A stretch of DNA of 64,000 bases. Origin: an uncultured Gammaproteobacteria bacterium (GTDB lineage: Bacteria; Patescibacteriota; Microgenomatia; Levybacterales; GWA1-39-11). The notes under the pieces were generated by a model. That model was not told the origin of the DNA and searched no databases. It worked only from the letters and a program-made list of their open reading frames with translations. The first letter of the stretch is position 1, and the number at the start of each line of letters is the position of its first letter. The stretch lies in NCBI GenBank assembly GCA_964406795.1, contig CAYOTA010000007.1, positions 5,898-69,897 of the forward strand, read 5' to 3'. Below are positions 8,355 through 61,022 of the stretch, piece after piece. Position numbers and translations under genes: made by a program.

Positions 8355-8417
8355 ATATAAAACAAAGCCTTTTTGAATTGTATCTTATACGAAAAGTAAC
8401 GAAAGGAGGTGAGCAGT

Positions 8418-13313: not shown

Positions 13314-13351
13314 GTGCTTTATTGAAATGTTAAATATGGTATTATACTAGT

Positions 13352-15051: not shown

Positions 15052-15059
15052 TGTATTTA

Positions 15060-20417: not shown

Positions 20418-21373
20418 GTTGTTTTTCCTAATAAAAGGGCAAGTAGCGCCATTCTAACATATACACCATTTTTCATTTGTGTTGAAAGATATAATGCATT
20501 AGGATTTTTATCAACGCGGGTATCTATTTCTCCAACTCTCGGCAACGGATGCATAAAATATGTATCTTTTGAAGCGTATGTCTTGATTAATTCAGGTGTT
20601 AGGACAAGAGAATGTTTGAGTTTTTCGTACTCTTTCTCATCTGTGAATCGTTCTTTTTGAACCCGTGTCCAATACCAGAAGTCAGCACTTTTTGGAATGT
20701 CTTTCGTGCTAGTAATCTCAATAAGCTTAATTGATTTTGAAAATGCTTCCAGTTCTACTTTTTTTATTTTTAGTTTTTCAGGAGATAATAAATACAATGT
20801 GTTATTGCTAAAAAGAGAAAGCCCGCGGATTAGGGATTTAACTGTTCTTCCATTTAGCATGTCGCCAGCTAATACTCCGGTTAAGTTATCCAATTTTTTA
20901 GAGCGCTCATAAATTGTATATAAATCTAATAACGTTTGAGTGGGGTGTTCATTTGTGCCGTCTCCAGCGTTAATTATTGGAATTGTGGCGGCGTCTGCTG
21001 CAATTTTTGCACTTCCTGCTTCTGGGTGTCTTATCACAATAAGATCGGAATAGCTTTCTAAAACATGAATCGTGTCTTCAAGACTTTCTCCCTTTGCAAC
21101 TGATGTATTTGAAATTCCGTGGATGGGTAAAATTCCCGCACCTAATTGTTGAGCTGCTGATGCAAAAGATGAAAAAGTTCTAGTGGATGGTTCGTAAAAT
21201 AAAAGGGATATTATTTTTCCTGAAAGAATATCAGAAGGTTTGCCAAATTCTCGCAAAGGTTTTAATTTTTTTGCAGTTTCTAAAACTTTCTTAATATCAG
21301 CTGACGAAAACTGGTCAAGGGAGAGTATGTGGGAGTTAATAAATTTTCCTGCAATTTTATTAGTTGTTACCAT
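20414..21373 (-). CDS. pyrB: Aspartate carbamoyltransferase catalytic subunit
   Basis: STRTFSSF (STRTR) and HPLP motifs. Likely start at MVTTNK (21373), giving about 319 aa; the ORF-track start at 21481 adds 36 non-conserved residues. Confidence 0.85.
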   Translation of the reverse strand: MVTTNKIAGKFINSHILSLDQFSSADIKKVLETAKKLKPLREFGKPSDILSGKIISLLFYEPSTRTFSSFASAAQQLGAGILPIHGISNTSVAKGESLEDTIHVLESYSDLIVIRHPEAGSAKIAADAATIPIINAGDGTNEHPTQTLLDLYTIYERSKKLDNLTGVLAGDMLNGRTVKSLIRGLSLFSNNTLYLLSPEKLKIKKVELEAFSKSIKLIEITSTKDIPKSADFWYWTRVQKERFTDEKEYEKLKHSLVLTPELIKTYASKDTYFMHPLPRVGEIDTRVDKNPNALYLSTQMKNGVYVRMALLALLLGKTT

Positions 21374-21485
21374 TATTTCTCTAAAGTATGCGTTTCTTGA
21401 ATCCAACTTTATCAAAAATAGGGTATTAATACAAGGTTTATTACATTGTTCAACAAATCTTATTGAATAACCTCTTGACAAGAAT

Positions 21486-21512
21486 TAGCAGTCATGTTAT
21501 ATTATTGCTAAG
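21486..21512 (+). promoter_or_regulatory. Degenerate CIRCE-like inverted repeat upstream of hrcA
   Basis: TTAGCAGTC-atgttatat-TATTGCTAA has 3 mismatches to the CIRCE consensus but the correct N9 spacing. Confidence 0.4.
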
Positions 21513-21594
21513 TTGCTGGAAGATAGAATGTTGAACATAGAATATTGATTTTTATTAAAAATTTCTACATTCTGCTTTCTACATTCTATATTCT

Positions 21595-22317
21595 ATGTAT
21601 GACTTAACGCCACGACAGGTAGACATTTTAAAACTGATCGTAAAAGAGTACATTGACAACGCAGAGCCAGTTGGGTCAGAAACACTTGAAAAAAAACATG
21701 ACATAGGTGTTTCTCCGGCAACCATTAGAAACGAAATGGCAAACATGGTAAAGCTTGGATATTTGTCCAAGCCGCATACATCTGCTGGAAGAATTCCCAC
21801 AACCAAAGCTTTAAAACTTTACATCAATGAATTGATGAAAGAAAAAGAAGTATCAGTTGCTGACGAAGTTCAGGCGCGTGAGCATGTGTGGGACTTACGT
21901 AAAACTGAAGATAAATTTTTGCGCGAAATAACACGGGATTTAGCCGCAAAAACACATTCTTTAGCGGTTACAACCACAGATGATGGAGACATATACTATG
22001 CAGGATACGCTCACATTTTAGAAATGCCTGAGTTTTATGATATAGACATTGCTAAAAATTTGTTAGCCATTTTAGATAACAGTTCACATTTTGAGATGAT
22101 TGCAAAAAAAATTGAAAACGATTTTGGAATTTTCTTAGGAGATGAACTGGAGCTGGAATTATTTAGACCGTACAGTTTTATCTTTTCACGATTTGACACA
22201 AAAAGTCATTGTGCTGGATCAATCGGAGTTGTAGGACCGGCTCGTGTTAAATATGATTCGCTTGTTCCAACAGTCAAATTTTTTGGAGGACTAATTGACG
22301 ATGTTGCTGAGTGGTAA
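21595..22317 (+). CDS. hrcA: Heat-inducible transcription repressor HrcA (short, about 240 aa)
   Basis: N-terminal wHTH LTPRQVDILKLIVKEYIDNAEPVGSETL is a classic HrcA signature. It is followed by grpE and dnaK. Confidence 0.85.
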   Translation: MYDLTPRQVDILKLIVKEYIDNAEPVGSETLEKKHDIGVSPATIRNEMANMVKLGYLSKPHTSAGRIPTTKALKLYINELMKEKEVSVADEVQAREHVWDLRKTEDKFLREITRDLAAKTHSLAVTTTDDGDIYYAGYAHILEMPEFYDIDIAKNLLAILDNSSHFEMIAKKIENDFGIFLGDELELELFRPYSFIFSRFDTKSHCAGSIGVVGPARVKYDSLVPTVKFFGGLIDDVAEW

Positions 22318-22354
22318 TGGGAAGAGGGAAAATTTGGAATACAGAATGTAGAAT

Positions 22355-22891
22355 ATGGACACAAAAGTAATAAAACAAAAAAAGGATGAAGAGATAGACA
22401 CGCAAGATTTAGAATTGGATGACAAAAATGCAGAAGAAGAGGTAATTGTAGAAGACGAAGAAAATGTAGTGCAGGATAATGCACTTGAGGAAAAGGTGAA
22501 AAGCTTGGAAGACCAGTTAAAACGAGCAGTTGCAGATTATAGAAATTTAGAAAACCGAAACAGAGAAGAACGGATAGAATTTGTAAAGTATGCAAATAAA
22601 AATTTGATAGAACAGTTGTTGCCGGCATTTGACACGTTGTTGTTGGCCGAAAAGTATACGGATGATCAAAACTTTAAAGTAACAGTGAAACACGTTTTGG
22701 AAGTTTTAAAGCAGGCGGGAATTGAACGGGTTGAAACGTCAGGGAAAAATTACAATCCGGTGACAATGGAAGCAATAGAAGTAGTAGAAGGAGATACAGA
22801 CAAAGTAGCTGAAGAGCTGCAGCCGGGATTCACTCTATTTGGTAAAACAATAAGACCTGCAAGAGTAAAAGTAGGCGGGAAAAAAGAGTAG
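22355..22891 (+). CDS. grpE: Nucleotide exchange factor GrpE
   Basis: Acidic N-terminus, a coiled coil, and a C-terminal GrpE beta-domain (FDP...AMEP-like motifs). Confidence 0.85.
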   Translation: MDTKVIKQKKDEEIDTQDLELDDKNAEEEVIVEDEENVVQDNALEEKVKSLEDQLKRAVADYRNLENRNREERIEFVKYANKNLIEQLLPAFDTLLLAEKYTDDQNFKVTVKHVLEVLKQAGIERVETSGKNYNPVTMEAIEVVEGDTDKVAEELQPGFTLFGKTIRPARVKVGGKKE

Positions 22892-22979
22892 TAAGTAGCA
22901 GGTATTATGTAGAAAGTATATCTTGAATTTTTTCTATACTTAATACATACTACTTAATACGTAATATATTTTTAAAAAT

Positions 22980-24917
22980 ATGAGCAAAATTATAGGAATT
23001 GATTTAGGAACAACAAATTCATGTGTAGCCGTTATGGAGGGTGGAGCGCCAAAGGTTATATTCTCTGCCGAAGGCCGAAATGTTACACCATCTGTTGTTG
23101 ATCCAGTTGACCGTGTGGTAGGTGACGTTGCAAAGCGCCAAATGGTCTTAAAGCCAAAGCGCATTCTCTTCTCCATCAAAAGACTTATGGGTAGACGTTT
23201 TAAGGATAAGTCTGTCCAAGATGATTTAAAACTTTTACCATACACAGTTAAAGAAGGAAAAGAAGGAACAGCAGTTGTAGAAGTGGACGGAAAAACTTAC
23301 ACGCCTCAAGAAGTGTCTGCTATGATTTTGCAAAAATTAAAAGCAGATGCTGAATCATACTTGGGTGACAAAGTAACTCAGGCAGTTATTACAGTTCCTG
23401 CATACTTTGATGACGCAGAGCGCCAAGCAACAAAACAGGCTGGAGAAATTGCCGGACTTGAAGTGTTACGTATTGTAAATGAACCTACAGCAGCAGCGCT
23501 AGCTTACGGGTTGGACAAAAAGCATGCGCATACTATTGCAGTATATGACATGGGAGGCGGAACATTTGATGTTTCCATTCTTGAACTGGGAGACGGCGTG
23601 TATGAAGTAAAAGCAACCAACGGAGATACTCATCTGGGTGGAGATGACTTTGACCAAAAAATAATAGGATATTTAGCTGACGAATTTAAAAAGGAAAACG
23701 GAATTGACTTACGATCTGATCCTCAAGCACTACAAAGACTGAAAGAATCTGCTGAAAAAGCAAAGATTGAATTATCCAGTTCAACAGAGGCAGAAATTAA
23801 CCAGCCATTTATAACTCAAGGTCCCAACGGTCCACTTCACTTAACTATGAAGTTAACACGCGCAAAGCTGGAAGATATTGTTGGAGATCTTATCACCAAA
23901 TCATTTAAACCTGCAGCAGACGCGCTAAAAGATGCAGGCCTTAAGGCAGCTGACATAAATGAAGTTATTTTGGTGGGTGGTATGACTAGAATGCCAAAGA
24001 TTGTTGAAGAAGTTGGAAAATTCTTTGGAAAAGAACCTAATAAGTCAGTTAATCCTGACGAGGTTGTAGCTATTGGTGCGGCAGTCCAAGCAGGAGTACT
24101 AGGTGGAGACGTTAAAGACGTATTACTTTTGGATGTGACCCCATTAACACTTGGAATTGAAACACTAGGCGGAGTAGCTACCCCACTTATTAATAGAAAT
24201 TCCACAATTCCTACCAAAAAATCACAAGTTTTCTCAACTGCAGCTGATAACCAAACTCAAGTAGAAATACATGTAACCCAGGGCGAGCGTCCTATGGCAG
24301 CAGATAACAAATCACTTGGCCGCTTTGTACTTGACGGGATTCCTCCGGCTCCTCGCGGAGTACCACAAGTTGAAGTTACTTTTGACATAGATGCGTCAGG
24401 AATACTGTCAGTAACTGCAAAAGACAATGCGAGTGGTAAAACTCAGAGTATTAAGATTACAGGAGGTACAGGTCTGTCTAAAGATGAAGTAGAAAGGATG
24501 ACAAAAGAGGCTGAGGCAAATGCCGAAGAAGATGAAAAGAAAAAGGAAATGATAGATGTTAGAAATAGGGCTGATTCACTTATTTTTACCGCTGAAAAGT
24601 CATTGAAAGATCTAGGAGATAAAGTTCCAGCTGAGATTAAGACTGATGTTGAGGCAAAAATAGTTGCTCTTAAAGAGGCTATAAAAGGAGAAGATAAAGC
24701 AGATATTGAGGCTAAAACAACAGAACTTTCAGACCATTTATCAAAAATAGGAGAGTCTATGCAGCAACAACAGCCAGGAGGACAGCCTGCAGGTGAGCAA
24801 CCAGGTGCAGAGTCATCAGCAGGTGAAACAGCGAGTGCCGATACAGGTGAAGAAGCGAAAGAGGAAAAAGATAAAAAAGCAAAAGAAGAAGCAGTTGAGG
24901 GAGAAGTAGTAAATTAA
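22980..24917 (+). CDS. dnaK: Hsp70 chaperone DnaK
   Basis: [14 protein letters not shown] and DMGGGTFD; full Hsp70 NBD plus SBD. Confidence 0.97.
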
Positions 24918-25395: not shown

Positions 25396-25552
25396 TTTTA
25401 TAGTATAATTATTAATATGAAATTTGCATCATTACCAATGCCTACGCGAGACATCCCTATGGGAATGGGATGTCATGTGCGTGGGAGACAGATGTAGCTA
25501 ATAACTACTAACTAATAACTGAAATAGGCCTCCCACAAAGGGGAGGTTTTTT
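25379..25552 (+). promoter_or_regulatory. Putative promoter plus structured leader ending in an intrinsic terminator 12 nt before the next start codon
   Basis: TTGAGA-16nt-TATAAT at 25379-25406. An 8-bp hairpin GACATCCC/GGGATGTC sits at about 25452-25479. The terminator stem CCTCCC-acaaag-GGGAGG plus T7 is at 25527-25552. TGGGAG at about 25490 could pair with the terminator arm CTCCCA as an antiterminator. Confidence 0.45.
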
Positions 25553-26371: not shown

Positions 26372-26427
26372 GAAGCTAGTATAGCTTAAAAAAGATTGTG
26401 TAGTGTAAGTTTTTTATGCTACTATAA

Positions 26428-26739
26428 GTGTATATGGCTGCAGGTGTGCCTTGCAAAATTAATGAAGTGCAGACAGATTTCGGTTGTTTACCAAATGAGC
26501 CTGTTCCGTTTATCGCAAAATTTTACGGAATAGGACTGGGTCTTATTGGAGGTATAGCTATATTGTTTCTCATCTACGGCGGGTATACGGTTATGACATC
26601 TGCAGGACGCCCTGATAGACTGCAAAAAGGTAAGGAATATATTTATTATTCTATTGCAGGTTTATTATTGGCTATTTTTGGATTTGTCTTTATAGAATTT
26701 ATTGCAGGACCGTTGCTGAGAATTCCCGGATTTTCATAG
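26428..26739 (+). CDS. Small two-TM hairpin protein, VirB2/TrbC-like T4SS pilin candidate
   Basis: 103 aa with an N-terminal Cys pair (CKINEVQTDFGC), then two hydrophobic helices separated by SAGRPDRLQKGKE, matching the TrbC/VirB2-like topology. It lies immediately upstream of the VirB6-like gene. Confidence 0.4.
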   Translation: MYMAAGVPCKINEVQTDFGCLPNEPVPFIAKFYGIGLGLIGGIAILFLIYGGYTVMTSAGRPDRLQKGKEYIYYSIAGLLLAIFGFVFIEFIAGPLLRIPGFS

Positions 26740-26742
26740 TAT

Positions 26743-29157
26743 ATGAAAAAATTTCTGCCCGTATTTATAAGTCTTTGTGCTTTTTTATTCCTTATTTTTT
26801 TAGTAAGTTCTCCTACCTTTGCATCAAATGGTGCGCCTACATTGGCACCCACAATCGCAGCTGGCCAGAAATTGGGTACTGATGCAACAGATAGATTTGT
26901 GCCTGATTCCAATGTTACATTCGTTGGGAAAACTGCAAGTAGAGCAGGTGATTTTTTAGACCTAACACTCAGAAATTATGACTGGGCATGTGTGACAAGA
27001 AATCCAGTAGATAATACCTGTGACAATAGAAACAATCCGCTAGCTGTATTTTGGGCCACTATCAGAAATATTATTTACGCAATTTTGGTAATCGTAGTGT
27101 TGGCCGCAGCCTTTATTATGATTGCAACTCGTGGAAGAAGTTTGACTATCACGCGCTTCATTCCCCGCTTTATACTCATAATTCTTTTAATAACATTTTC
27201 ATTTTCACTTGTTCAGTTTTTGTATCAAATTGCAGATATTATTCAGGGGTTTTTCCTGCGTACCGGAGAGGGGGCTGCTAGGCATATTATCTCAACTCGC
27301 GACCTCATATTTATAGGGTTTGATTACAAAAACTTTACAGGACTCAGGCTCCCGGGTCCGGAAAATGATGAGTCCGCATTTATGACACTTCTTTTAGTAC
27401 GACTTACCGCTGTTACTTATTACGTTATGACAGGAATTTTGATTGTGAGAAAAATTATCTTGTGGTTTTTTATAGTCTTGTCCCCAGTCTTTCCTCTTTT
27501 ATTGTTCTTTAAGATTATTAGAAATACAGCCAAAATTTGGATTGGTGAATTTTTCAGATGGCTGTTGTATGGTCCACTTTTTGCAATTTTCTTAAACGGT
27601 TTAGTTGTTTTATGGAGTAGCGGAAGTGAGACGAATCCTGGTATTCCGCTCGGGTTTACTATGGTAGGCGTAGGGGATCCAGGAAAAGTTATTTATCCAA
27701 CAGCCGTTAATATTTTGATTGGTGGACCTGGTCAAGCATTAGGTTTTAATAATTCAGTAAATACCCAAGACACATTTGCCTTGTATGTTGTAGCTCTCAT
27801 CATGTTATGGGTTGTTATGATTTTGCCGTTTATTCTGCTTAAGATTTTTCTTGACTTTGCCTCAGGATTGTCCATCCAAAACAACAGAGCATTTAAGCAG
27901 ATGTGGAATAAAGTTTCTCCCGTAACGCCTCCTCCGCCGTCTGGCCCACCACCTCCGGCAGGAGCTGGTTTGGCTATGAAAATGCCTTTTGGAGCCTCAA
28001 AAACTATTACTATGCCGGCTAGTACCTATACCAGTACAGGCTTAGCACGTGAGTTGCCGAGATCTGAAAATATTTCAAGATCAGTTCCAACGATTGCAAG
28101 AATTCCTGAAAATATGCGTATCTTACAGCAGGCAAACATAACAATTCCAAGACTAACGGATATTGCGCGTTTCGAAAAAACCATCGAAACACGTGACACA
28201 TCCAAAATTTCTGAAGTAACGCGCATGACAACTTCTCTGCAAAGAATTTCAAACCCTAGCTCAGTTTCCTCATCTGTTGAAAGAAGCAGGTATCAGCAGG
28301 TTAGAACAGAATTGGTGAAAGAACGCCAGAAGGGTAATGTGCTGGCTACATCTATTTTGAATGCAGCAAATGTTACAAACAACACAAATAATAACACTTC
28401 AAGTTCAAGAGTGGGTGGTTTGCATACTCAGTCAATTCAAAACAATTCATCCACAATAAATAATTCTCAAAGCTCAACTCTTAATAATTCACAGAGTTCT
28501 ACTGTTAATAACAGCCAGGTTTCAACAAGTATGTCAACGGGAGTTAAAAATGCATCAACAAATGTAGTAGGAGGCCAAGTTACAAGCGACGGAGTGCCAA
28601 AGACTGCGATGACAACTCCTTCCGCTGTTCATTTACCCGCAGTAAACAAAGTTCAGCAGGTAAGTATTGAGGATTATGAAGAGGTCAAGAAAATGTGGCT
28701 TGAAACATATGAAACATCCAGTCCTCCAACTGACTTAAATGGTAAAAAATCAACCCGGGATGAATGGATTACCAATGATATGAACAATATTAATCAAGCG
28801 GTGTCACTTTTGAATTCAGTGGATCCAATTAGAGTTAATGAGGGTATGAATATGGTCTCAAATATCCTTCCGTTTTTGATGGTTGGAGGATTTTCAAAAA
28901 CAGAGGTTGTTGCCTATCTTAAAGCAAAACTTGAAGCAGGAAAACAAGTAATGTCTTCCGGAACTAATAAAAAAGATGAGGATGACACGCTTCTTGACCG
29001 TAACACTCACACAACACAAGCAAGTAAGTATATGGAAGCACAACAAGCAGCTGCAATTCCAACTGATACGCCAGGCGCCCCAAGAGAAATGAGTGATGAA
29101 ATGTATAAAACTCCTACTGCTATTCAAAATAAGACTGAAGAATCAATTAAAAAATAG
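26743..29157 (+). CDS. VirB6/TrbL (TcpH-like) polytopic membrane protein with long low-complexity C-terminal tail
   Basis: Signal peptide and a Cys-containing exodomain, then 5-6 TM helices with VirB6-like spacing. The following roughly 400-aa tail is N/S/T/Q-rich with a PPPPSGPPPPAG segment. The architecture resembles Gram-positive conjugation TcpH. Confidence 0.45.
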   Translation: MKKFLPVFISLCAFLFLIFLVSSPTFASNGAPTLAPTIAAGQKLGTDATDRFVPDSNVTFVGKTASRAGDFLDLTLRNYDWACVTRNPVDNTCDNRNNPLAVFWATIRNIIYAILVIVVLAAAFIMIATRGRSLTITRFIPRFILIILLITFSFSLVQFLYQIADIIQGFFLRTGEGAARHIISTRDLIFIGFDYKNFTGLRLPGPENDESAFMTLLLVRLTAVTYYVMTGILIVRKIILWFFIVLSPVFPLLLFFKIIRNTAKIWIGEFFRWLLYGPLFAIFLNGLVVLWSSGSETNPGIPLGFTMVGVGDPGKVIYPTAVNILIGGPGQALGFNNSVNTQDTFALYVVALIMLWVVMILPFILLKIFLDFASGLSIQNNRAFKQMWNKVSPVTPPPPSGPPPPAGAGLAMKMPFGASKTITMPASTYTSTGLARELPRSENISRSVPTIARIPENMRILQQANITIPRLTDIARFEKTIETRDTSKISEVTRMTTSLQRISNPSSVSSSVERSRYQQVRTELVKERQKGNVLATSILNAANVTNNTNNNTSSSRVGGLHTQSIQNNSSTINNSQSSTLNNSQSSTVNNSQVSTSMSTGVKNASTNVVGGQVTSDGVPKTAMTTPSAVHLPAVNKVQQVSIEDYEEVKKMWLETYETSSPPTDLNGKKSTRDEWITNDMNNINQAVSLLNSVDPIRVNEGMNMVSNILPFLMVGGFSKTEVVAYLKAKLEAGKQVMSSGTNKKDEDDTLLDRNTHTTQASKYMEAQQAAAIPTDTPGAPREMSDEMYKTPTAIQNKTEESIKK

Positions 29158-29209: not shown

Positions 29210-31927
29210 ATGTTCGGAAATTTATTTACTCCAAAAAAAGACGATGTGTTAAATGGTTTACCTCAAGATGCGCCTGTAGTGTCTACTGAATCACAAGAGA
29301 CTATGAGTATGGGGCAGCAGTCGGGTATATCCAGCTCAGATCAGGACATGAATGCCGGAGGAATAGATCCCCAAAAAAGGCAAAGTATGTCAGCTCTTTC
29401 CAAACTTGATCCTCGATCTTTGCAGGTTTTGCACCATGCTGAGCAAGAAACTAAACGCGTTCAAGCCTCTCAAATTGGCTCTGAACAGCTGCTTTTAGGA
29501 ATGTTTTATGACGGTGAGATTTTTCAACTTCTAGAAAGTTTCCAAGTGGATGTGGCAAAGCTGACACAGCAAATTCAAAGCAAAGAAAAACCTGGCGGAT
29601 TTACCGGACAGCCCACCATGAGTACTGCCGTAATTCAGATATTTGATGAGGGTTACAAAAGTGCAAAAAAAAGAGGCGCTTCCTTTGTCTCCCCGGAAGA
29701 TATATTGGTTGGATTCTTTGCGGATCCCGCAACAACCTCATTTTTAAAAGCATTTGGAATTGAAAAAGGAAAACTGGATGATAAACTTTCCAAAACAACT
29801 TCTTTTGCCCAATCATCTAGAAAATCAGTGTTGGAAAAATATGGAATTGATCTGACTCAGGAGGCAAAAGATGGAAAGCTTGACCCAGTTGTAGGCCGAG
29901 ACAAAGAAACAGAGCGTTTAATTCACATTTTATTAAGACGCACAAAAAATAACCCTATTATTATAGGTGAAGCTGGAGTTGGAAAAACGGCTATTGTTGA
30001 GGCACTTGCACAAAAAATAGTAGAAGGATCAGTTCCTCATGATCTACTAGACAAAAGAATTATTCAGCTTGAATTGTCATCCCTTGTGGCAGGTGCGTCT
30101 CACAGAGGTGAGTTTGAGGAGCGACTTCAGGATGTAATTCATGAAACCCAGGCTTCAAATGGGAAAATTATTTTGTTTATAGACGAGATACACACGCTCA
30201 TTGGCGCTGGAGACACGGGCGGAGCACTTGACGCGTCCAATATCATAAAGCCATATTTGGCCCGTGGACAGCTGCAACTTATCGGAACTACCACTACGGC
30301 CGAATACAGAAAGCATTTTGAAAAAGATAAGGCATTTGAAAGACGTTTCCAGTCAGTGTTAGTAGATGAACCTGAAGAAGAAGTAGCGCAGCAAATGTTG
30401 GACGTACTGCGTCCTAAATATGAAAAATTTCACTCTGTAGTTATAACCCCAGAAGCAATTGAGGCAGCAGTTCATTTGTCAAAAAAATATATTGGTGAGC
30501 GCTATCTTCCGGATAAGGGAGTTGACCTATTGGATGAGGCTGCCGCTGAGGTAAAACTTCAGCACACTGAGGGCAAGCGTGCAGATAATAATGTGGTGAA
30601 AGCTGACATTGAAAAAGTGGTTGCAGCTTGGACCGGAATTCCTATAACCAGACTTACTGAAGATGAAAGTCAAAAACTAATTCATTTGGAAGACACAATT
30701 CACAAGCGCTTTATAGATCAAGAAGAAGCTGTAGGATCAGTATCTGAGGCTGTAAGACGCGGAAGAATTGGACTCTCGGCCGCCAACAGACCCATTGCGT
30801 CATTTATTTTCCTAGGCCCTACGGGTGTAGGTAAAACAGAGTTAGCTAAAACGCTTGCTGAAATTTTATTTGGCCGCGATGACTTACTGGTCAGACTTGA
30901 TATGTCTGAATATATGGAAAAGCATGAGGTAGCAAAGCTTATAGGTGCACCTCCTGGGTATGTAGGATATGAGGAGGGTGGACAGTTAACGGAGGCGGTA
31001 CGTGCAAAACCCTATTCTATTGTGTTGCTGGATGAAATTGAAAAAGCTCATCCTGATGTGTTTAATATTCTTTTGCAGCTTTTGGAAGATGGTCGCTTAA
31101 CTGACAATAAAGGAAACACAATTTCATTTAAGAACACTATCATAATTGCGACTTCAAACATTGGAAGCTCAGTTATTCAGCAGACATTATTAACACAAGC
31201 ATCCAACGGAACGCAAGTAGTATCCCCGGAAGAAGAAGCTAAAAAGTATTCTGAACTGTCAGCAACCCTTATGGAAGAGTTGAGAAAATTCTTTAAACCG
31301 GAGCTGTTAAATCGTTTTGATGACATAGTTATGTTTAAACCCTTACGAATGCGCGATATGGCCCAAATTGCAAAATTGGGAATAGGAAAAACACAAAAAT
31401 TACTGGAAGAGCAAAAAATCCATTTGGAAATAACAGAGAAAGCAATTGGAATATTGGCAAAAGAAGGATACGATCCAGTTTATGGTGCGCGACCTTTAAG
31501 ACGCCTTGTCCAGACCGCAATTGAAAATCCCATTGCAGTTCTATTAATCAACAAAACATTTGTGCCGGGGGATATTATTAAAATCGATTATGATGATGCA
31601 AAGTCTGAGTTTACCTTTACAAAAGGTGTACCTGCGGTTGCAGGGCCTCAACCATCTATATCTGAGACAGCACAAAATCCAGTTGTTCAGCCTCAATACG
31701 TGAATCAAGCACCTCAAGCTTCAGGTGTGTCAGCTAATCCATCAGGTATTGCCCAACCGCAACAGACTCAGCCCATGAATGCTATGCCTCAGCAGCCAGT
31801 AGATGATCCAAATGCAGGAATTTTGTCACAGATTGCGCAGGAACACACAGTAACACCTATACCATCAGCACCAAATGGTACTGCTCCTCAGCCTGGAGTT
31901 GGCGGAACCATGATGCAACCCGCATAA
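29210..31927 (+). CDS. clpC: ClpC-like class-I AAA+ unfoldase (Clp_N, D1, short linker, D2) with disordered N- and Q/P-rich C-terminal extensions
   Basis: Two Clp_N repeats; D1 Walker [10 protein letters not shown] and Walker B ILFIDEIH; D2 [12 protein letters not shown] and LLDEIEKAH; GAR sensor-2. There is no long ClpB M-domain. No [LIV]G[FL] tripeptide occurs at the ClpP-loop position ([22 protein letters not shown]). Confidence 0.85.
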
Positions 31928-31949: not shown

Positions 31950-33881
31950 ATGTGGAAAGAAAAGATTTTACCGTTTCTTAAAAAATATTACCCTTTTTTA
32001 CTCCTTATTCCCCTTGTAATACTCGCATTGTTTTTTGTTCTTAGAGTGTTTGCACGTGACATAGTGGTAAATCCTGGGGGAAATCCGTTTCCCAAAGGCT
32101 CCGAGTATTCAAATGACCAAATAATTGTGAAGTATAGAAAAGGACAGTCACCTGAAGAACTTAAAAAAGATGGAAGACTGGAACAGGAAAAGTCACTTGC
32201 AGATACGCTAGTAGCATTAGGTGTGGAGTCTCAGCAAAAACTATTTACCTCAGTGGATGATTTTTTGAAAAACTATTATTTACTGTACTTAAAGCAGGGA
32301 ACAAACATTCAAGATTTATATAAGAAATTGTCAGATGTTCCTGAGATAGACTCTATAACACCTGACTATATTTTAAAAACTGATAAGCCTGATAAGGAAA
32401 CAACTAATGTACCCAGTGTGCAGTCACCACCCATCAGTGATGAAGAACCAAACGACCCGTATTTTGTGGACGGGCAGCAATGGGATATGAATTCTATAGA
32501 TATGAAAAAAGCGTGGAATATAAAAAGAGCTGGAGCTGAAACTGTAGTAGCTGTGATCGACACAGGCGTTGATTATAATCATCCTGATTTGGTGGGGAAG
32601 GTAATAAAGGGAAAAAATTATATTAATAACACAGATGATCCAATGGATGATCATGGGCATGGAACTCATGTAGCAGGGACTATAGGCGCAATTACAAATA
32701 ACGGAATTGGTATTAGCAGCGTTTCATGGGGAGCCAAAATATTAGCAATTAAAGCGTGCGATAATAATGGGGATTGTATAACATCAAACGTAGTAAGAGG
32801 CATATCATACGCTTTAAGCCAAGGTGTTAAAGTTATTAATATTAGTATTGCGGGGGTTGGGTCATGTACACGCGAAAACTTTTTTGGGGGGGACCGTGTG
32901 TATGAAGACGTTATAAAAGAGGCAAATAGTAAGGGCGCAATTATGATAGTTGCTGCCGGAAATAATAACCAAGATGCGAAAAACGAAGTTCCTGGTGCAT
33001 GTGAAGGTGTTGTAGCGGTTGGAGCCACCAACCAATCAAATGAAAGGTGGGTAAGTAGTGACTCTACGGGATCTAATTTTGGAGACAAAATTGATTTATC
33101 GGCACCTGGGTCGCCCATTCTTTCAACAAGTGTCCAAAATGGGTACAGCATAAGAAATGGTACGTCTATGGCAGCTCCTCATGTTTCCGGTGTGGCTGCT
33201 TTATTATTATCATTTAATAAAAATTTGTCATCCAGTGAACTTAAAAAATGTATAGTTGAAAGTGCTGGAAAGATAGAATCTGACCGCTACATTGGTGGGC
33301 TTTTAAATGCGTACAATGCGCTTATGAGGTGTGGTGCAAGTAATCCTCAAAGTATATCTGCGCTAACACCCACATCTATCCCCTCAATTCTTCCAACCGC
33401 GCCAGACGAGATTATTGGAGGTAACAATATAGATAATTATTCTATCTCAGGCACTATATTTATAGATCAGAATAATAATGGTTTGTTTGACAGTTCTGAA
33501 AAAACTCTGGGTGGAGTGCAGGTACTAGTCTCCCCCACAGACCCTTCAACCAGTATACTTGCCAATCCGCGTGGATTTTATTTTTTTAATGACTTAGGCA
33601 GGCCGGATGATTATTTAGTGTCATTAGTAATTCCAGGAGTAAGCGCAGTTAATCTTCCCACCAGAACTGTTACGTTAAGTAACACAATTAAATCAGCACG
33701 TATAAATATTCCTGTATCTCCCTTGGCACTTCCCTCCCCTTCCCCGAGGCCTACAAATATGGCTCAAAATGGTGCTCCTTCTCCTACCTCATCTCAAAAT
33801 GTACCGCAAGGTTGCTACTATGATCCTGGATGTTTTAGTAGTAATCAGTCGGTTCAGGCATGCTCTTTTACGTGTGACTGA
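31950..33881 (+). CDS. Membrane-anchored subtilisin-like (S8) serine protease with C-terminal SdrD-B/CnaB-like domain and Cys-rich tail
   Basis: Catalytic triad motifs AVIDTGVDYNHPDL, HGHGTHVAGT and GTSMAAPHVSG. N-terminal TM plus propeptide. C-terminal ...GTIFIDQNNNGLFDSSEKTLGGVQV... B-type fold and a CYYDPGCFSSNQSVQACSFTCD tail. Confidence 0.85.
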   Translation: MWKEKILPFLKKYYPFLLLIPLVILALFFVLRVFARDIVVNPGGNPFPKGSEYSNDQIIVKYRKGQSPEELKKDGRLEQEKSLADTLVALGVESQQKLFTSVDDFLKNYYLLYLKQGTNIQDLYKKLSDVPEIDSITPDYILKTDKPDKETTNVPSVQSPPISDEEPNDPYFVDGQQWDMNSIDMKKAWNIKRAGAETVVAVIDTGVDYNHPDLVGKVIKGKNYINNTDDPMDDHGHGTHVAGTIGAITNNGIGISSVSWGAKILAIKACDNNGDCITSNVVRGISYALSQGVKVINISIAGVGSCTRENFFGGDRVYEDVIKEANSKGAIMIVAAGNNNQDAKNEVPGACEGVVAVGATNQSNERWVSSDSTGSNFGDKIDLSAPGSPILSTSVQNGYSIRNGTSMAAPHVSGVAALLLSFNKNLSSSELKKCIVESAGKIESDRYIGGLLNAYNALMRCGASNPQSISALTPTSIPSILPTAPDEIIGGNNIDNYSISGTIFIDQNNNGLFDSSEKTLGGVQVLVSPTDPSTSILANPRGFYFFNDLGRPDDYLVSLVIPGVSAVNLPTRTVTLSNTIKSARINIPVSPLALPSPSPRPTNMAQNGAPSPTSSQNVPQGCYYDPGCFSSNQSVQACSFTCD

Positions 33882-33887
33882 TAAAAC

Positions 33888-35417
33888 ATGCATAGATTAG
33901 GTAAAAAATATTTATTCCTTAAAGATCGAAAAGCGTTTATTTTAATTAGCGTGTTTTTGTTTTTAGGTATAGTTGTCTCTACGCTTTTCTTAAGTGCAAA
34001 ACATAGTACTAATGAGCAGGGTACAGCAGATGTTAAAAGTGGAACATGGGAAATAACAGTTGCATATAAAACAGAAACAAAAAAATTAGAACTTAAAAAA
34101 CTGCAGCTGCTATCTGAAAAAATTAATTCTGACAGCCGTACTGCATTATTTTCACCGTATACACTTTCTGTGATTGGAAAAAGTAACACAGTGCTTTATT
34201 CATCTCCGGTATTTATTGCAACAGAATACATATTTAGCATTTATGCCGGCTCGCGGGAATCACCAGGATTTAGCAGTTTTTCACAAGATGTTCCGCCAGT
34301 ACTTCCCAGGCCCCCAGCTGAGTTGGAGACTGTGTTATACGCGCCTTTAATTGCAGATTCATCTGAAATGGTAATTAAAAATGACGGAAAACAAGAATTA
34401 TCTATAAATTTGCCGGGTATAACAGGAATCTCTCAAAGCTCAAAAATTGCTCAGTCAGTATGCGGACCTTTACAGGTAGTGTTTATGAGTGACGGTTATA
34501 CTGATTTTCAAAAATTTCATCAAGATGTTGAGAGATTGAAGCAGACATTCTTATCAGCAGATCCGTATACTAAGAAACCAAATATGTTTGACTTCAAGAC
34601 AGTGGATAACGCACAAAGTCTTGGTTGCATGCAGAGCCTTGGATGTATTCGTAACCCAGATGTTCCCCGTATTGGTCGGCAAGCGTTTCCTCAGGCATCA
34701 AAATTTATAGTTATTGCAGATATTTCATATAATAATCCACCTCAGGGAGCCGCACTGGGAGTTATAAATGGGATAGGGGGGAATGTTATGGCTTTTCCAA
34801 GAAGTGCATATGTGCAGGGTCGCGAACTTGTAAATGAGATAGCAGTGCATGAATTTTTGGGTCATGGGGTTGGATTTTTGTACGATAGATACGTAGTAAA
34901 AAACAACACTCAGAGTGTAAAACGTAACTGTTCCAATAATCCAGCTGGGGAGTCGTTTTGGTCAGCGGCAGGTGTAACCCAAACTTACCCTGGGTGCTTT
35001 GCTGAGTCAAGATTTGCGCCAACCCCAAATGACTGTACGACCCCGGGACATCCAACACTCGTAAGTGGTGGTTCATTAAGTTCAGTTATGAGCGCAGGGG
35101 GATGTGGAGCAACACAATTTGATACCGTTGAAAAATATTGGATTGAAAACTATATTTTTCCAAAATATTCTAGCTGTAGTGATCCCACTACCACACTACG
35201 TCCTACGATGACAAACAGTCCAAGTGTTTCTCCAACTGGAGTTGTGGTGTGTAATCCGGACGGTGTAGGAGGGATTGATTTTGCTGATTTGCGCCTGGCA
35301 AGGCGTGAAATTGCTGGCATAGCTTCTACCTCACACGCCGCATGTATGACTGGTGGGCAGAGCACAGTATTTGCTGATTTGCGCAAAATACGGCGTATAA
35401 TTGCTGGTTTGGAATAG
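33888..35417 (+). CDS. Secreted zincin-like metallopeptidase candidate (M64/IgA-peptidase-like motif) with C-terminal dockerin-like repeats
   Basis: N-terminal [18 protein letters not shown] resembles the M64 HEFGHsfggLaDEY motif but with one extra residue (HExxxH). The C-terminus [23 protein letters not shown] ... [13 protein letters not shown] looks like a dockerin loop-helix duplication. Confidence 0.45.
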
Positions 35418-35464: not shown

Positions 35465-36331
35465 ATGGCAGCAAAAAAAGATTTTTATGAGACATTGGGT
35501 GTTTCAAAATCCTCAACTCCAGAAGAATTAAAACGAGCCTACAGAAAATTAGCGCTGGAGTATCATCCTGATAAAAATAAAACAAAAGAGGCTGAAGAGA
35601 AGTTTAAAGAAATAAACCAGGCATATGAAGTATTATCTGATCCTCAAAAGCGTACCACATATGATCAAGTTGGTCATGCTGGGTTTGAGGGAGGAGCAGG
35701 GGCTGGCGGCCCATTTGGCGGCCAGGGTGGGCAATATGGTCCATTTACTTACTCGTATTCGAATGGTGGAAACGCGTCCGGATTTGATTTTGGCCAGGGT
35801 GGTGCTGATCCATTTGAAATATTTGAGCAATTCTTTGGGGGTGGATTTGCCAAAAGAAAACCAAGATACAGTATTGCGATAGATTTTCTTGAAGCAGTCA
35901 AAGGGGTTACAAAAAATGTTTCAATTGACGGAAAACCACAAAACATAAAAATTCCGGCAGGAGTGGATAACGGCTCAAGGATACAATTTCCTGAGTATGA
36001 GGTTGTTGTGTCAGTAAGATCCAATAGTAAGTTTCACCGCGAGGGAAATGACATTTTAACTGAAAAGCAAATTTCATTGTCTCTCGCAATTTTAGGGGGT
36101 ACAGTAGATGTTGAGACTGTGCATGATACGGTAAAACTTAAAGTATCAGCTGGTACTCAGCCTGATTCGCTCATTCGTATCAAAGGAAAAGGCGTACCGC
36201 GCGTAAGAGGGGGTGGAAGCGGGGATCATTTTGTGCGAATTAAAGTTGTGATTCCTGCAAAAATTTCAGGAAGACAAAAAGAACTAATTGAAGAATTTGA
36301 TAAAGAAAGCAAAAAACGCACCTGGTTTTAA
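35465..36331 (+). CDS. dnaJ: J-domain co-chaperone, class B (DnaJ/CbpA-like, no zinc-finger domain)
   Basis: J-domain with HPD (YHPDKNK), a G/F-rich region and CTD I/II. The CxxCxGxG repeats are absent. Confidence 0.8.
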
Positions 36332-36378: not shown

Positions 36379-36705
36379 ATGGGTATTCTGCTCTATCCCT
36401 TTGTAGTGCTTTTATTTTGGTATAAAGATGGTCTCTTGTCTATCTTTTCATTTTTCGGATCACTTAATGATTATTCTCTAAGGCTATTCTCACTTCCCGG
36501 TCTTTTTGCCACATACTTCAGGCCGCTTAAAAACGAATACAGAAAAAACCTTATTTTGTTTTCAATTCTATTTGGAATGGTTGTTAAAACATTTCTTATC
36601 ATAGGTTCATTGACTATTTTTTCCATAATTTTACTGTGTGAACTAATCGTCATTAGCATATATTTAATTTTCCCGCTTTTGCCAATTATTTTATTTTTAG
36701 GATGA
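36379..36705 (+). CDS. Small 3-TM membrane protein, translationally coupled to the downstream membrane ClpC paralog
   Basis: 108 aa and hydrophobic, with an ATGA stop/start overlap with 36702. Confidence 0.4.
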   Translation: MGILLYPFVVLLFWYKDGLLSIFSFFGSLNDYSLRLFSLPGLFATYFRPLKNEYRKNLILFSILFGMVVKTFLIIGSLTIFSIILLCELIVISIYLIFPLLPIILFLG

Positions 36706-39071
36706 AACTATTTAATTATTACGACTTTTATAAGTTGTACTCTCTGGTACCCATGAGGGTTTTGCGTGTTTTAATTTTGTTGGGATTAGCTAGTCTTATA
36801 ATTCTTAACTATGAAGAGTTTTTATTGTTTAGACTTTTTCTCATAATTTATACACTCTTTCTTATTAACGAGATATTTATTTACTTTAAATTAAACAAGT
36901 CTTTCCCCCGATTTTTAGTTATAGATAATAAAGCAAATTTTGAAGGCTCCACTCTTTTTAAAACAAAGAAAATTATGTCAGGAAGGAATCTTTTCTCCAA
37001 TCTTCATGACTTATTCAAAGAAATAGACGTAGCATTTCTTATAGAAAGAATTGGCGGAACCATGCAAAGTTATGAGCAGGTAGATCTAAAAATCTTATAT
37101 GAAAAATCTTTAGAAGTGGCTCGGCGATCTGGGGGAAAATACATAACATCCGCCGATGTTGCGGTCGCATATTTACTTATCACGGAAGAAAAAACAAAAT
37201 ATTTGTTTCAGCAAGAAATAACAGAAAACGATTTATATGAAATACTTATGTGGGCACGTGGGAGGTATGGTTTAGATCGAGCTAAATCAAGCACATTGCA
37301 CTTCACCGGTTATGGGGTTTTTGACTTCTTTATTTATGGATGGGATACATTAATTAAAGAATATTCGTATGACATTTCTTTAAGTGTAATCAATAAACAT
37401 GAAACGCCAATTGTTGGCCGGGAAAAAGAGTTTCATGCAATGGTATCTATATTATCTAAAAATACAGCAAATAATGTTATTTTACTTGGGGAGCCAGGTG
37501 TTGGAAGATCGGCGTTAGTGCGCAAATTTGCACTTGAAGCATATAGAGACTCTCACTTTGTGCTGGCACACACAAAAGTATATGAGTTATTGGCAGACAG
37601 ACTACTTTCAGGAGTGCAAAACACGGGGGACCTAGAGTCTCGGTTATCTCTCTTGTTAGCTGAACTGGAGCATTCAGGGAATATTATTTTGTTTATTCAA
37701 AATATAGAAAATATATTTGGTGGCGGTGGGTTTAACTTTGATATGTCAGGTATTCTGTTTCAATACTTAAAAAGTGGGCGGGTGCAGATAATTGGAACAA
37801 CAACTCAATCTTTCTATAAAACCGTGCTTGAGAAAAAACCCAGCATATCTAATTTATTTGAAAAAATAAGAATTGAGGAGCCTGACCGGGCAAATATTTT
37901 CCAGATGATTGCTTCACATGTGGATATTATTGAGCATGAGTATCAACTGTCTGTCTCATATAAAGCAATTCATGAATCCGTTGAGTTATCTTCTACATAC
38001 ATGCCTGATTTATATCTTCCGGGAAAGGCAATAAATCTTTTATCTGATGTTGCGGCCCAAGCCAGAATGAATGGACAAAAAAATGTCTCCAAAGATGACG
38101 TAACGCGTGTTATTCAGGAGAAGACAAATATAATCCTTGAAAAGCCTACGGAAGAAGAGAAGAAAACGCTATTGTCGCTTGAGGCAGATTTACATAAAAG
38201 AGTTATTGGGCAAAATGAAGCAGTTGATGCTGTTGCAAAAGCCATCAGACGACTGCGTTCAGGATTTTCTCAGCATAACAGGCCCATTTCAGTATTTTTG
38301 TTTTTAGGCCCAACAGGGGTTGGAAAAACTGAGACAGCAAAAGCACTGGCTGCATTATATTTTGGCGATGAAAATTCCATGATCAGGCTTGATATGTCTG
38401 AGTATCAAACTCAAAATGAAGTAGAGCGTTTACTCGGTGGAATTCCTGGAGGGGAAGAACTTGCTAACTCATTGCCGGAAGCAGTAAGACAGCATCCATT
38501 TTCACTCCTTCTTTTAGATGAGTTTGAAAAAGCACATCCTCGTATTTTGGATATTTTTCTTCAAATTTTTGAAGATGGACGTCTTACTGATAACCAGGGT
38601 AAAACAGTTTCATTTAAAAACACAATTATTATTGCAACTTCCAACGCTGGATCAGAACTAATAAGACAAATGGTTAAAATGGGCCTAAACGGAGATAATA
38701 TGAAAAATGACTTGGTTGAGGCATTGCTTTCAAATGGCCAATTTAAACCAGAATTACTTAATAGATTTGATGACGTTATCGTGTTTAAACCGCTTACTGT
38801 TGAAGAAGCTTCTCAAATAGCCGGTCTATTGCTCTCACATTCACTAAAAACATTAGAAGATGATCAAATATATCTTACATTTGATGCAAGTGTTATCGAA
38901 AAGATAGTAAGGGAGTCTTATGACCAGGAGGCAGGAGCACGTAATATGAGAAGGTATATAGGTTCTACAATCGAGGATTTTATATCTAAACTTATTCTTG
39001 AGAATAAACTCGCTCGAGGAACACACGCAGTAATTGGTACTGATGTAAACGGAAATTATATACTACAATAA
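36702..39071 (+). CDS. Membrane-anchored ClpC paralog with degenerate (pseudo-ATPase) D1 and intact D2
   Basis: Two N-terminal TM helices and a Clp_N-like repeat. The D1 Walker A is GEPGVGRSA (K to R, T to S), the Walker B is ILFIQNIEN (DE to QN), and the Arg-finger region is altered. D2 is intact ([26 protein letters not shown]). An MGL tripeptide sits at the ClpP-loop position (KMGLNGDN aligned to ClpC KHLGFNVQD). Confidence 0.75.
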   Translation: MKLFNYYDFYKLYSLVPMRVLRVLILLGLASLIILNYEEFLLFRLFLIIYTLFLINEIFIYFKLNKSFPRFLVIDNKANFEGSTLFKTKKIMSGRNLFSNLHDLFKEIDVAFLIERIGGTMQSYEQVDLKILYEKSLEVARRSGGKYITSADVAVAYLLITEEKTKYLFQQEITENDLYEILMWARGRYGLDRAKSSTLHFTGYGVFDFFIYGWDTLIKEYSYDISLSVINKHETPIVGREKEFHAMVSILSKNTANNVILLGEPGVGRSALVRKFALEAYRDSHFVLAHTKVYELLADRLLSGVQNTGDLESRLSLLLAELEHSGNIILFIQNIENIFGGGGFNFDMSGILFQYLKSGRVQIIGTTTQSFYKTVLEKKPSISNLFEKIRIEEPDRANIFQMIASHVDIIEHEYQLSVSYKAIHESVELSSTYMPDLYLPGKAINLLSDVAAQARMNGQKNVSKDDVTRVIQEKTNIILEKPTEEEKKTLLSLEADLHKRVIGQNEAVDAVAKAIRRLRSGFSQHNRPISVFLFLGPTGVGKTETAKALAALYFGDENSMIRLDMSEYQTQNEVERLLGGIPGGEELANSLPEAVRQHPFSLLLLDEFEKAHPRILDIFLQIFEDGRLTDNQGKTVSFKNTIIIATSNAGSELIRQMVKMGLNGDNMKNDLVEALLSNGQFKPELLNRFDDVIVFKPLTVEEASQIAGLLLSHSLKTLEDDQIYLTFDASVIEKIVRESYDQEAGARNMRRYIGSTIEDFISKLILENKLARGTHAVIGTDVNGNYILQ

Positions 39072-41036: not shown

Positions 41037-41086
41037 GTGGGTATTATGCGTGAGAAGAGCGTGAAAGTCAAACGTTTACAAATACT

Positions 41087-42190: not shown

Positions 42191-42226
42191 GTATTTGGGG
42201 CAAGAGTAGGCAGGGGAACAATTTAG

Positions 42227-44455: not shown

Positions 44456-44490
44456 ATTTGTCAGTTTGTTTATTTTTATTTTCTAATTTA

Positions 44491-44540: not shown

Positions 44541-44549
44541 AATGAAGTT

Positions 44550-61007: not shown

Positions 61008-61022
61008 GAGTTAACATATTGT

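Follow-up and report, generated by a model that had tools for sequence, protein, structure and literature searches.

In a 64,000-nt stretch of contig CAYOTA010000007.1 (assembly GCA_964406795.1, positions 5,898 – 69,897; hereafter the window), a VirB2-like pilin gene and a gene for an extended VirB6-like membrane protein lie side by side, followed directly by a gene for an atypical ClpC-like Hsp100 unfoldase. Comparison with related loci indicates that the pilin/VirB6-like pair is most likely the core of a chromosomal module of Levybacteria, paralogous to but separate from the canonical type IV secretion system (T4SS) of Patescibacteria. The further proposal, drawn from genomics only, that this module is functionally coupled to ClpC and independent of VirB4 is given close to even credence. 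The parts themselves belong to known families (T4SS_pilin, TrbL/VirB6 and Hsp100); it is the combination that is distinctive, as it comes without a linked VirB4, the feature that defines a T4SS.

A scan of one genome per species with the VirB6-like family found the module in at least 122 Levybacteria-type species genomes, from which 80 loci were kept. With contig look-ups added, 82 non-redundant loci (cited below by L numbers) were compared, and 73 of these were readable for the position of ClpC. In 70 of the 73 the genes run pilin, VirB6-like, ClpC-like, so that the adjacency to clp genes pointed out in a preliminary description of the window holds among its relatives as well. In 62 loci the ClpC-like gene comes immediately after the VirB6-like gene (gap 2 – 160 nt, median 47.5; 52 nt in the window), and it follows a single inserted gene, coding for a secreted protein of ~450 – 540 aa, in another eight; three loci (L080, L086 and L087) have no adjacent ClpC-like gene. 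Across the loci the pilin stands ahead of the VirB6-like gene with a median gap of 4 nt (3 nt in the window, from stop to start), and the two genes are translationally coupled. The module is always attached to hrcA-grpE-dnaK, which precede the pilin. The position of dnaJ is either before the pilin, where it is often found, or after the proteases, and only some of the related loci have the S8 and M64-like genes. The outer flanks also vary, with pyrimidine genes or metG/tatD on one side and a dehydrogenase or nusA/infB on the other, and identity among VirB6-like members drops to 36 – 40%. Since the neighbours shift and the trio stays, the trio has been kept through rearrangement. With more than 600 homologues and recurrence in 80 species-level genomes, the arrangement is far beyond chance.

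A single lineage accounts for all of the loci. The window is itself a Levybacteria-type contig (class Microgenomatia, Patescibacteria/candidate phyla radiation, CPR), and the homologues closest to its 804-aa VirB6-like protein are annotated as Levybacteria/Levyibacteriota. The module is also carried by complete chromosomes (OZ246394.1, OY970292.1 and CAZDOJ010000001.1, the last of 1.32 Mb). A plasmid origin, or one from an integrative and conjugative element (ICE), is not supported, as tblastn of the pilin and the VirB6-like protein against 72,556 plasmids gave no match; Pfam scans of the window open reading frames (ORFs) found no mobile-element genes near the pair. Many of the Levybacteria-type contigs from metagenome-assembled genomes (MAGs) (L009 – L087) are deposited as 'uncultured Gammaproteobacteria bacterium', and a few such records are labelled Limnocylindrales, Sulfotelmatobacter, Saccharimonadales or Xanthomonadales; the taxon labels are unreliable.

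A family of secreted or anchored proteins (450 – 700 aa, no Pfam match) recurs in or beside the module, with 16 ORFs in 15 loci. It is found between the VirB6-like gene and ClpC in L024, L026, L030, L038, L053, L054, L067 and L078, and upstream of the pilin in L018, L040, L041, L049 and L083. The family could provide a substrate, a tip or a wall-processing factor; the inserted protein of the eight loci matched nothing in Pfam or NCBIfam.

The pilin scores above the gathering cut-off of the Pfam family T4SS_pilin (PF18895; 28.9 vs 26.6 bits). Its best NCBIfam match, NF045849 (Mbov_0395 pilin-like conjugal transfer protein), covers profile positions 9 – 78 of 80 at 33.4 bits, below the cut-off of 40. 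It has 944 homologues, and the best 120 matches of the profile search were orthologues only, most of them carrying a precomputed PF18895 match. It had been described as a 103-aa protein of VirB2/TrbC topology, and the family, the N-terminal Cys pair (C9/C20 in the 103-aa numbering) and the two hydrophobic helices separated by a basic loop, SAGRPDRLQKGKE, were all upheld by the sequence and the orthologue alignment; the start was not. The ORF as listed opens with a GTG at 26428, whereas an ATG at 26434, invariant in four related loci, is most likely the true start, judging from sequence, and gives a protein of 101 aa. The loop between the helices is predicted to be cytoplasmic. Because a stop codon lies immediately 5' of the ORF, the pilin has no cleavable N-terminal signal or leader peptide, and 54 of 68 orthologues have no more than 12 residues ahead of the first Cys. 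From its family, the protein may be predicted to polymerise into an extracellular fibre.

A terminator-like hairpin (25526 – 25549) lies between dnaK and the pilin unit, and two small ORFs and one opposite-strand gene separate it from the pilin. An operator of the CIRCE type (controlling inverted repeat of chaperone expression) was searched for ahead of the pilin gene and was not found. The extended -10 element just upstream of the ATG (Table 1) suggests that a leaderless or near-leaderless transcript probably opens the pilin, VirB6-like, ClpC unit. In the clade with long ClpC proteins, a second protein with a T4SS_pilin domain (151 – 459 aa, the domain C-terminal) is encoded divergently upstream of hrcA, as in L007 (4122 – 5285, minus strand) and L008 (4206 – 4661, minus strand), and similarly in L033, L034, L036, L060, L063, L068, L070, L077, L082 and L084. 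Its family is that of the first pilin in the VirB4-linked canonical arrays described below.

Assignment of the 804-aa protein to the VirB6 family, proposed at first from the window alone, was borne out by both family and fold searches. Against Pfam TrbL (PF04610) the window protein remains below the cut-off (19.8 vs 25.9 bits, E 7.4e-4); among its 619 homologues, 26 of 35 matched TrbL at E<=0.01 (best E 8.3e-7) and several carry a precomputed PF04610 match. An AlphaFold2 (AF2) model built from 48 homologues had a mean confidence (pLDDT) of 67.6, rising to 70 – 90 in the membrane core, and its five best Foldseek matches in the PDB were all TrwI/VirB6 of R388 (prob 0.82 – 1.0, E 0.13 – 0.74, TM score 0.44 – 0.48 on the target), led by 8rt9_F (prob 1.0, E 0.13, TM score 0.48). 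These E-values lend moderate support to a modelled VirB6 fold. A PDB sequence-profile search with the VirB6-like alignment returned designed helical proteins only.

The signal peptide, the Cys-containing exodomain (C83 and C93, conserved across 48 homologues) and the 5 – 6 hydrophobic helices of the preliminary description were all recovered, and the transmembrane (TM) core carries a near-invariant motif, RNTAKIW.GEFFRW. The tail, however, is not just low-complexity sequence. Over ~430 aa it alternates disordered low-complexity stretches with two conserved, folded helical domains at residues ~450 – 556 and ~636 – 750 (pLDDT 80 – 96). Neither was matched in Pfam or NCBIfam, or by fold in the PDB. 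The C-terminal one occurs in 1 – 3 copies in relatives and in VirB6-like ORFs only, and Foldseek against the PDB found no known fold for it (best E 0.5). Hydrophobicity gives six segments, while the AF2 model has residues 206 – 253 as one continuous 48-residue helix, with good confidence, and so five spans. The loop charges (+2.9 after TM1, with the exodomain and the large loops negative) fit an N-out/C-in arrangement, which is also the topology of Agrobacterium tumefaciens VirB6. Taken with the five modelled spans and with a repeat common to the tail and the cytoplasmic ClpC (see below), this suggests that the tail is cytoplasmic.

The ClpC-like protein aligns end to end with Staphylococcus aureus ClpC (6em8/6em9, E 4.5e-210) and scores below every NCBIfam equivalog cut-off (ClpB 884 vs 1232, ClpA 719 vs 993, ClpV 693 vs 885). 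Relative to S. aureus ClpC, ~51 residues are missing at the place of the M domain, so that the two Walker A motifs are 283 residues apart instead of 334; the spacing is 282 – 285 in 52 of 57 orthologues. The M domain of ClpC serves control by MecA and other adaptors. The (I/V/A)GF loop that docks ClpP is absent from the window protein (in the 6em8 alignment) and from 57 of 57 orthologues. With the M domain and the ClpP loop, the traits that define ClpC, both gone, the protein is, by its sequence, a ClpP-independent unfoldase without the adaptor domain and with a long extension on the D2 (exit) face. In the window this C-terminal extension is Gln/Pro-rich and had no match in Pfam or NCBIfam. 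The N-terminus is also unusual: the proteins open with a near-invariant M(F/L)GN(L/I)F in 56 of 63 cases and variants in the rest (window 29210 – 29400; L001 – L085), and a low-complexity linker of very variable length separates this from Clp_N. The opening is reminiscent of MFGRF..., the start of canonical ClpC, and looks as though it had been parted from the N-domain by a disordered insert.

A tie in sequence between the VirB6-like tail and ClpC is given by a repeat of ~50 aa, L..IANP..v.s..ER.RF..l..KL..e.qKGN.lA..IL, which in the window protein falls within residues 450 – 556. VirB6-like relatives carry 1 – 9 copies, with up to ~25 matched stretches in a representative library. In 14 loci, a hidden Markov model (HMM) of the tail repeat also matches the C-terminal extension of the adjacent ClpC, with 3 – 5 copies each and i-E values down to 1e-10; these repeat-bearing ClpC proteins are confined to one subclade. 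The reciprocal HMM, made from ClpC copies only, matched 87 VirB6-like ORFs, including that of the window (E 1.5e-11), and neither a shuffled decoy nor any other ORF in ~1.6 Mb of loci plus the window, which rules out compositional noise. Searched against 1.84 billion representative proteins, the repeat profile matched 174 at E<=1e-3. The best 150 of these comprised 105 VirB6-like proteins with the membrane core, 29 tail fragments, 2 ClpC-like proteins and 14 left unclassified, nearly all of which are short fragments resembling VirB6-like or ClpC-like proteins. Recent gene conversion is likewise ruled out, as 38 of 39 ClpC copies are most similar to ClpC copies of other genomes (mean identity 67.5%) and share 37% identity with the VirB6-like copies of their own genome. 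This pattern points to an ancient acquisition under selection, and on sequence comparison the repeat-bearing extension of ClpC is an old feature maintained by selection.

The module was then compared with canonical T4SS loci. As first reported for the window, no VirB4, coupling protein or relaxase is present in the 64 kb: among ORFs of at least 150 aa, Walker A motifs were found only in the two Clp-type ATPases and, incidentally, in GrpE and a 2-hydroxyacid dehydrogenase, and Pfam scans found no VirB4, VirD4 or relaxase, the remaining ORFs being housekeeping only. Nor was any VirB4-like P-loop ORF found within 10 kb of the module in 88 loci. Canonical loci were reached by a search from the paralogous pilin upstream of hrcA in L008, and occur in the related contigs L089, L090 and L092. 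Their order is a TrbL-like gene (531 – 562 aa), a large opposite-strand ORF, Trans_reg_C, four T4SS_pilin genes, PrgI/VirB3, a TraC-like gene and VirB4, followed in L089 and L092 by dnaN and dnaA; it matches the arrangement published for Microgenomatia (PMC12102498). The TrbL paralogue of these loci matches an HMM of the VirB6-like membrane core at E ~1e-9 and has neither tail domain. Since the canonical VirB4 system has a VirB6 and pilins of its own, the window pair is a second, paralogous set, and the idea that it supplies a 'missing VirB6' of the Levybacteria T4SS was dropped for the same reason.

Published scores are also informative. According to the Levybacteria entries of Table S1 of PMC12102498, VirB4 is present in 20 of 44 assemblies and absent from 24, and the corresponding entries for Magasanikbacteria and Kaiserbacteria assemblies of the same project have it in roughly 85 – 90%. 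The module was found in two assemblies entered there as VirB4 'No' (RIFCSPLOWO2_01_FULL_38_21, L030, and RIFCSPHIGHO2_01_FULL_37_33, L035) and in one entered as 'Yes' (CG2_30_37_29). Independence of the module from VirB4 therefore looks likely from gene content. The earlier concern that a complete T4SS elsewhere would make the pair duplicated spare parts is weakened by the canonical loci with their own TrbL and pilins and by the VirB4-negative assemblies; on these sequences the pair is most likely not a spare part of a VirB4 system.

Two further loci recall the canonical arrays. In the window (53754 – 55824, minus strand), a gene for an SLT_3 (PF18896) VirB1-like lysozyme stands beside one for a 430-aa protein with a C-terminal Trans_reg_C domain, which has 23 – 24% full-length identity to the regulator that immediately precedes the four-pilin/VirB4 arrays of L089 and L090. 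No pilin array or VirB4 lies beside it, and it may represent a paralogue or what is left of a T4SS locus since lost. In L091 (1 – 3050), a contig labelled Levybacteria, an AbiEii/DUF6922 toxin-antitoxin pair and a gene of the 23S_rRNA_IVP family break up a four-pilin array, after which comes a gene for a 2290-aa protein with a protein-kinase domain in place of PrgI-TraC-VirB4.

The explanation favoured here, offered tentatively and at somewhat less than even confidence as a whole, has three parts: a VirB2-like pilin without a signal peptide, an extended VirB6 platform and an atypical ClpC-type unfoldase. The VirB6-like protein would sit in the cytoplasmic membrane with its disulfide-bonded N-domain outward and its ~430-aa tail in the cytoplasm, and would form an oligomeric platform that recruits membrane-embedded pilin, by analogy with TrwI/VirB6. 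A ClpC hexamer, unable to dock ClpP and without an M domain, would be recruited to the tail, whose mixture of disordered stretches and folded domains could plausibly give an AAA+ pore a handle; the ClpC proteins of one subclade carry tail repeats themselves, on the extension leaving the D2 (exit) face. ClpC would then supply the ATP-driven pulling force that VirB4 gives in a T4SS, mobilising pilin and building a short surface fibre or conduit. The preliminary suggestion that ClpC-type ATPases might substitute as motor gained comparative support from the adjacency in 70 of 73 loci, the repeat in 14 loci and a ClpC lacking both ClpP loop and M domain; the sidedness of the tail, its contact with ClpC and any energetic coupling or motor role we infer from such comparisons. 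By analogy, ClpC could specifically be the motor for assembly of the pilin or fibre, a narrower claim that we regard as doubtful.

Several observations weigh against this explanation. The module lies inside an hrcA-grpE-dnaK-dnaJ cluster with CIRCE before hrcA, and the ClpC adjacency could reflect a single insertion into an old heat-shock operon. A promoter-like site lies between the VirB6-like and ClpC-like genes, which may be transcribed separately. The window's own ClpC is without the shared repeat, which is limited to the 14 loci, and by hydrophobicity alone there could be six spans, in which case the tail would lie outside the cell. Of the three loci without ClpC, two have groES-groEL within ~7 kb downstream (in L087 directly after the VirB6-like gene), and in the third neither is found; S8 genes occur as well in L086. 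The loci with groES-groEL point partly to a chaperone or co-regulation theme and not to ClpC specifically. With regard to VirB4, its absence from the window genome covers 64 kb only, the 'No' scores come from incomplete MAGs, none of them a complete chromosome, and L089, L090 and L092 are presumed to be Levybacteria.

A rival view is that the pair is a set of dispersed T4SS parts working with a VirB4/TrsD/PrgI system near dnaA elsewhere in the genome, its position beside ClpC resulting from insertion into a highly expressed, HrcA-controlled chaperone operon and the shared repeat from a third partner in common or from local duplication long ago. The canonical VirB4 loci of related contigs, the 20 VirB4-positive entries among 44, the description of VirB6 as 'scarce' in Microgenomatia by the 2025 survey (PMC12102498), the one VirB4-positive assembly with the module, and the CIRCE-bearing chaperone cluster with groES-groEL near two ClpC-less loci are all in keeping with it. 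It accounts poorly, though, for the TrbL paralogue and four pilins that the canonical loci already carry, for the module in VirB4-negative assemblies, for a module that appears far commoner than VirB4 (at least 122 species genomes), for tail domains and a ClpC-shared repeat without counterpart in the canonical locus, and for a trio that remains together while its neighbours move. We consider it unlikely.

The heat-shock setting can also be taken at face value, with the VirB6-like protein and its small hairpin partner serving as an anchor or adaptor that brings ClpC (perhaps the ClpB-like protein too) to the membrane to extract or remodel misfolded membrane or secreted proteins under stress, with no pilus or secretion involved. 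Envelope proteostasis of this kind would suit a supercluster of hrcA, grpE, dnaK, dnaJ, two Hsp100s and secreted proteases with hsp20 and groEL nearby, the second Hsp100, which is anchored in the membrane and in L067 forms a fusion with its small membrane partner, a ClpC without a site for a protease partner, and a tail that combines disordered segments with helical domains of a docking type. An extracellular structure is favoured instead by the Cys-bonded exodomains, conserved in both proteins, and by the pilin's strict membership of its family; the pilin gene has no CIRCE site before it, and we know of no role for VirB6 proteins in proteostasis; this view is improbable. Equally so, in our estimation, is an Hsp100-driven translocon, in which the ClpC exit face would sit on the VirB6-like tail and unfolded proteins would be threaded through an oligomer of the VirB6-like protein and a conduit of the VirB2-like one, leaving the cell or entering a host bacterium, with no VirB4. 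That there is no functional link at all, the adjacency persisting by phylogenetic inertia inside a single order and the pair being left over from an ancient conjugative element, is very improbable: all loci are from one lineage and the window ClpC has no repeat, but the trio persists at 36 – 40% identity amid varying flanks and inserted genes, purifying conservation is strong with many invariant columns, the ClpC-shared repeat is conserved, and there are no plasmid relatives or mobile-element genes nearby.

Table 1. Module genes, their conserved parts and the surrounding chaperone cluster (window coordinates)
Feature	Position	Strand	Basis
CIRCE-like operator and sigma-70-like promoter, then hrcA-grpE-dnaK	21485..24917	+	operator/promoter stretch 21475-21511
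Extended -10 promoter-like element TGcTACTAT, 8 nt 5' of the pilin ATG	26417..26425	+	invariant in window, L001, L003, L005
VirB2-like pilin, T4SS_pilin family, 101 aa	26434..26739	+	Pfam PF18895, NCBIfam NF045849
Extended VirB6/TrbL-like polytopic membrane protein, 804 aa	26743..29157	+	TrbL family matches, Foldseek
VirB6-like transmembrane core, residues ~99-375	27037..27867	+	invariant alignment columns, AF2 pLDDT 70-90, loop charges
Tail mid-domain, one copy of the ~50-aa 'ANP...ER.RF...KGN.LA..IL' repeat	28090..28410	+	HMMs
C-terminal helical tail domain, EDYE..KKMW...LPFL.GGFS.TE..AYLKAK	28648..28992	+	invariant columns, pLDDT 85-96
Atypical ClpC-like Hsp100, 905 aa, Clp_N and two AAA+ modules, low-complexity N- and C-terminal extensions	29210..31927	+	Pfam, PDB alignment
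Variable cargo: secreted S8 subtilase (643 aa) and M64-like secreted protein (509 aa)	31950..35417	+	Pfam
dnaJ	35465..36331	+	translation
108-aa membrane protein and membrane-anchored ClpB-like AAA+ (789 aa)	36379..39071	+	ORFs, Pfam, locus comparison

The chaperone cluster of the window reads, on the plus strand, hrcA, grpE, dnaK, pilin, VirB6-like, ClpC-like, S8, M64-like, dnaJ, 108-aa membrane protein and ClpB-like. The CIRCE-like site before hrcA (21485 – 21511) has three mismatches and overlaps the best promoter-like site there; such sites precede hrcA in at least 39 related loci, and groES in L087. Another CIRCE-like repeat, with one mismatch, is found at 8327 – 8353, just upstream of an hsp20 gene (8409 – 8858). 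The cluster is closed in most related loci by the 108-aa protein and the ClpB-like protein, which are fused into one 872-aa gene in L067. In the window, the 108-aa protein has three helices and no match in Pfam or NCBIfam, and its gene overlaps that of the ClpB-like protein (36702 – 39071) by 4 nt. The latter has N-terminal TM helices, a degenerate first (D1) Walker A motif (GVGRS) and an intact second one, and is, from its sequence, a membrane-anchored Hsp100 without family assignment. The S8 subtilase scores 184 bits against the NCBIfam mycosin-like family, below its cut-off. A reading of the region as a type VII secretion-like system, based on the AAA+ proteins, the mycosin-like S8 and the small helical hairpin, was rejected: there is no FtsK-type EccC, and the S8 gene is variable and below the mycosin cut-off.

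Three other regions of the window deserve mention. The segment upstream of the cluster (12492 – 21481) codes for orotidine monophosphate decarboxylase, dihydroorotate dehydrogenase, an amidohydrolase/dihydroorotase-like protein, carB, carA and aspartate carbamoyltransferase, a full de novo pyrimidine set; Patescibacteria are generally described as being without nucleotide biosynthesis. At 40440 – 45809 (minus strand), a sortase gene is followed by genes for three Asn/Thr/Ser-rich repetitive surface proteins (367, 742 and 419 aa), none with a Pfam match, the first of which ends in LPATG and a hydrophobic anchor. An AcrB-family transporter of the resistance-nodulation-division type (1112 aa) and an HlyD-like membrane-fusion protein are encoded at 57669 – 62477 (minus strand), in a presumed single-membrane bacterium.

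To our knowledge, VirB4 is the one universal signature of type IV secretion, and we know of no VirB6/VirB2 pair that works without it. Full-text literature searches turned up no report that connects Clp ATPases to VirB6 or T4SS pilins in Patescibacteria, and no paper in the library searched joins Levybacteria with type IV secretion. If the favoured explanation is true, this would be the first order-wide VirB2/VirB6 module apart from a VirB4 locus, present in genomes scored VirB4-negative and tied to a ClpP-independent Hsp100, and the first T4SS sub-assembly to have been re-motorised. The module could explain why VirB6 appeared scarce in the 2025 survey of Microgenomatia (PMC12102498), and is a candidate for surface-structure building or protein export by ultra-small, host-dependent bacteria.

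The closest known system is the T4SS of Patescibacteria, which is related to the MPF-FATA type (Quinonero-Coronel et al. 2025, PMC12102498). Both have PF18895 pilins and a TrbL/VirB6 protein, and both are chromosomal, without relaxase, in monoderm CPR bacteria. The published system is defined by VirB4 with PrgI/VirB3 and TrsD and usually lies near dnaA, whereas the module combines a single pilin that lacks a signal peptide with a VirB6 bearing a tail of 430 aa and an ATPase of the ClpC type. A T4SS is also recorded for Southlakia epibionticum (Wang et al. 2023, as cited in PMC12857230). The pilin's best NCBIfam match, NF045849, covering nearly the whole profile, leads to the pilin-like proteins of Mycoplasma ICEs (Mbov_0395); the match is below cut-off, and those proteins belong to conjugative elements that contain VirB4.

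In structure, the best counterpart of the VirB6-like AF2 model is the TrwI/VirB6-VirB2 platform of R388 (PDB 7o3v, 8rt9, 8rtd), at 14% sequence identity, Foldseek E 0.13 and TM score 0.48. In the R388 model, VirB6 recruits membrane VirB2 for fibre growth and the force comes from VirB4 (PMC12857230). That system is diderm, with VirB3/4/5/8 and an outer-membrane core, whereas the module has no VirB5 and would use a different motor. Extended VirB6 proteins, including TcpH of pCW3, share with the window protein at least five hydrophobic helices and a large C-proximal hydrophilic domain, the role of which is generally unexplained (PMC12857230). The tail domains of the module differ in having no detectable relatives outside the VirB6-like family and the neighbouring ClpC, and may offer a function-bearing handle on such extended proteins.

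For the unfoldase, the parallels lie further afield. Hsp100 proteins are coupled to membrane machines in the Plasmodium translocon of exported proteins (PTEX; HSP101-EXP2), in chloroplasts (Hsp93/ClpC at Tic) and in type VI secretion (ClpV), and the HSP101 entries of PTEX (6e10/6e11) are among the PDB relatives of the ClpC-like protein. The translocon considered above would, if true, correspond in prokaryotes to PTEX and stand apart, as a principle of secretion, from types I – XI. The membrane components of PTEX, Tic and type VI secretion are not homologous to those of the module, and the resemblance is one of functional analogy without family membership; what they have in common with the arrangement proposed here is a ClpB/ClpC-type unfoldase that passes nothing to ClpP and works solely for a membrane or secretion apparatus.

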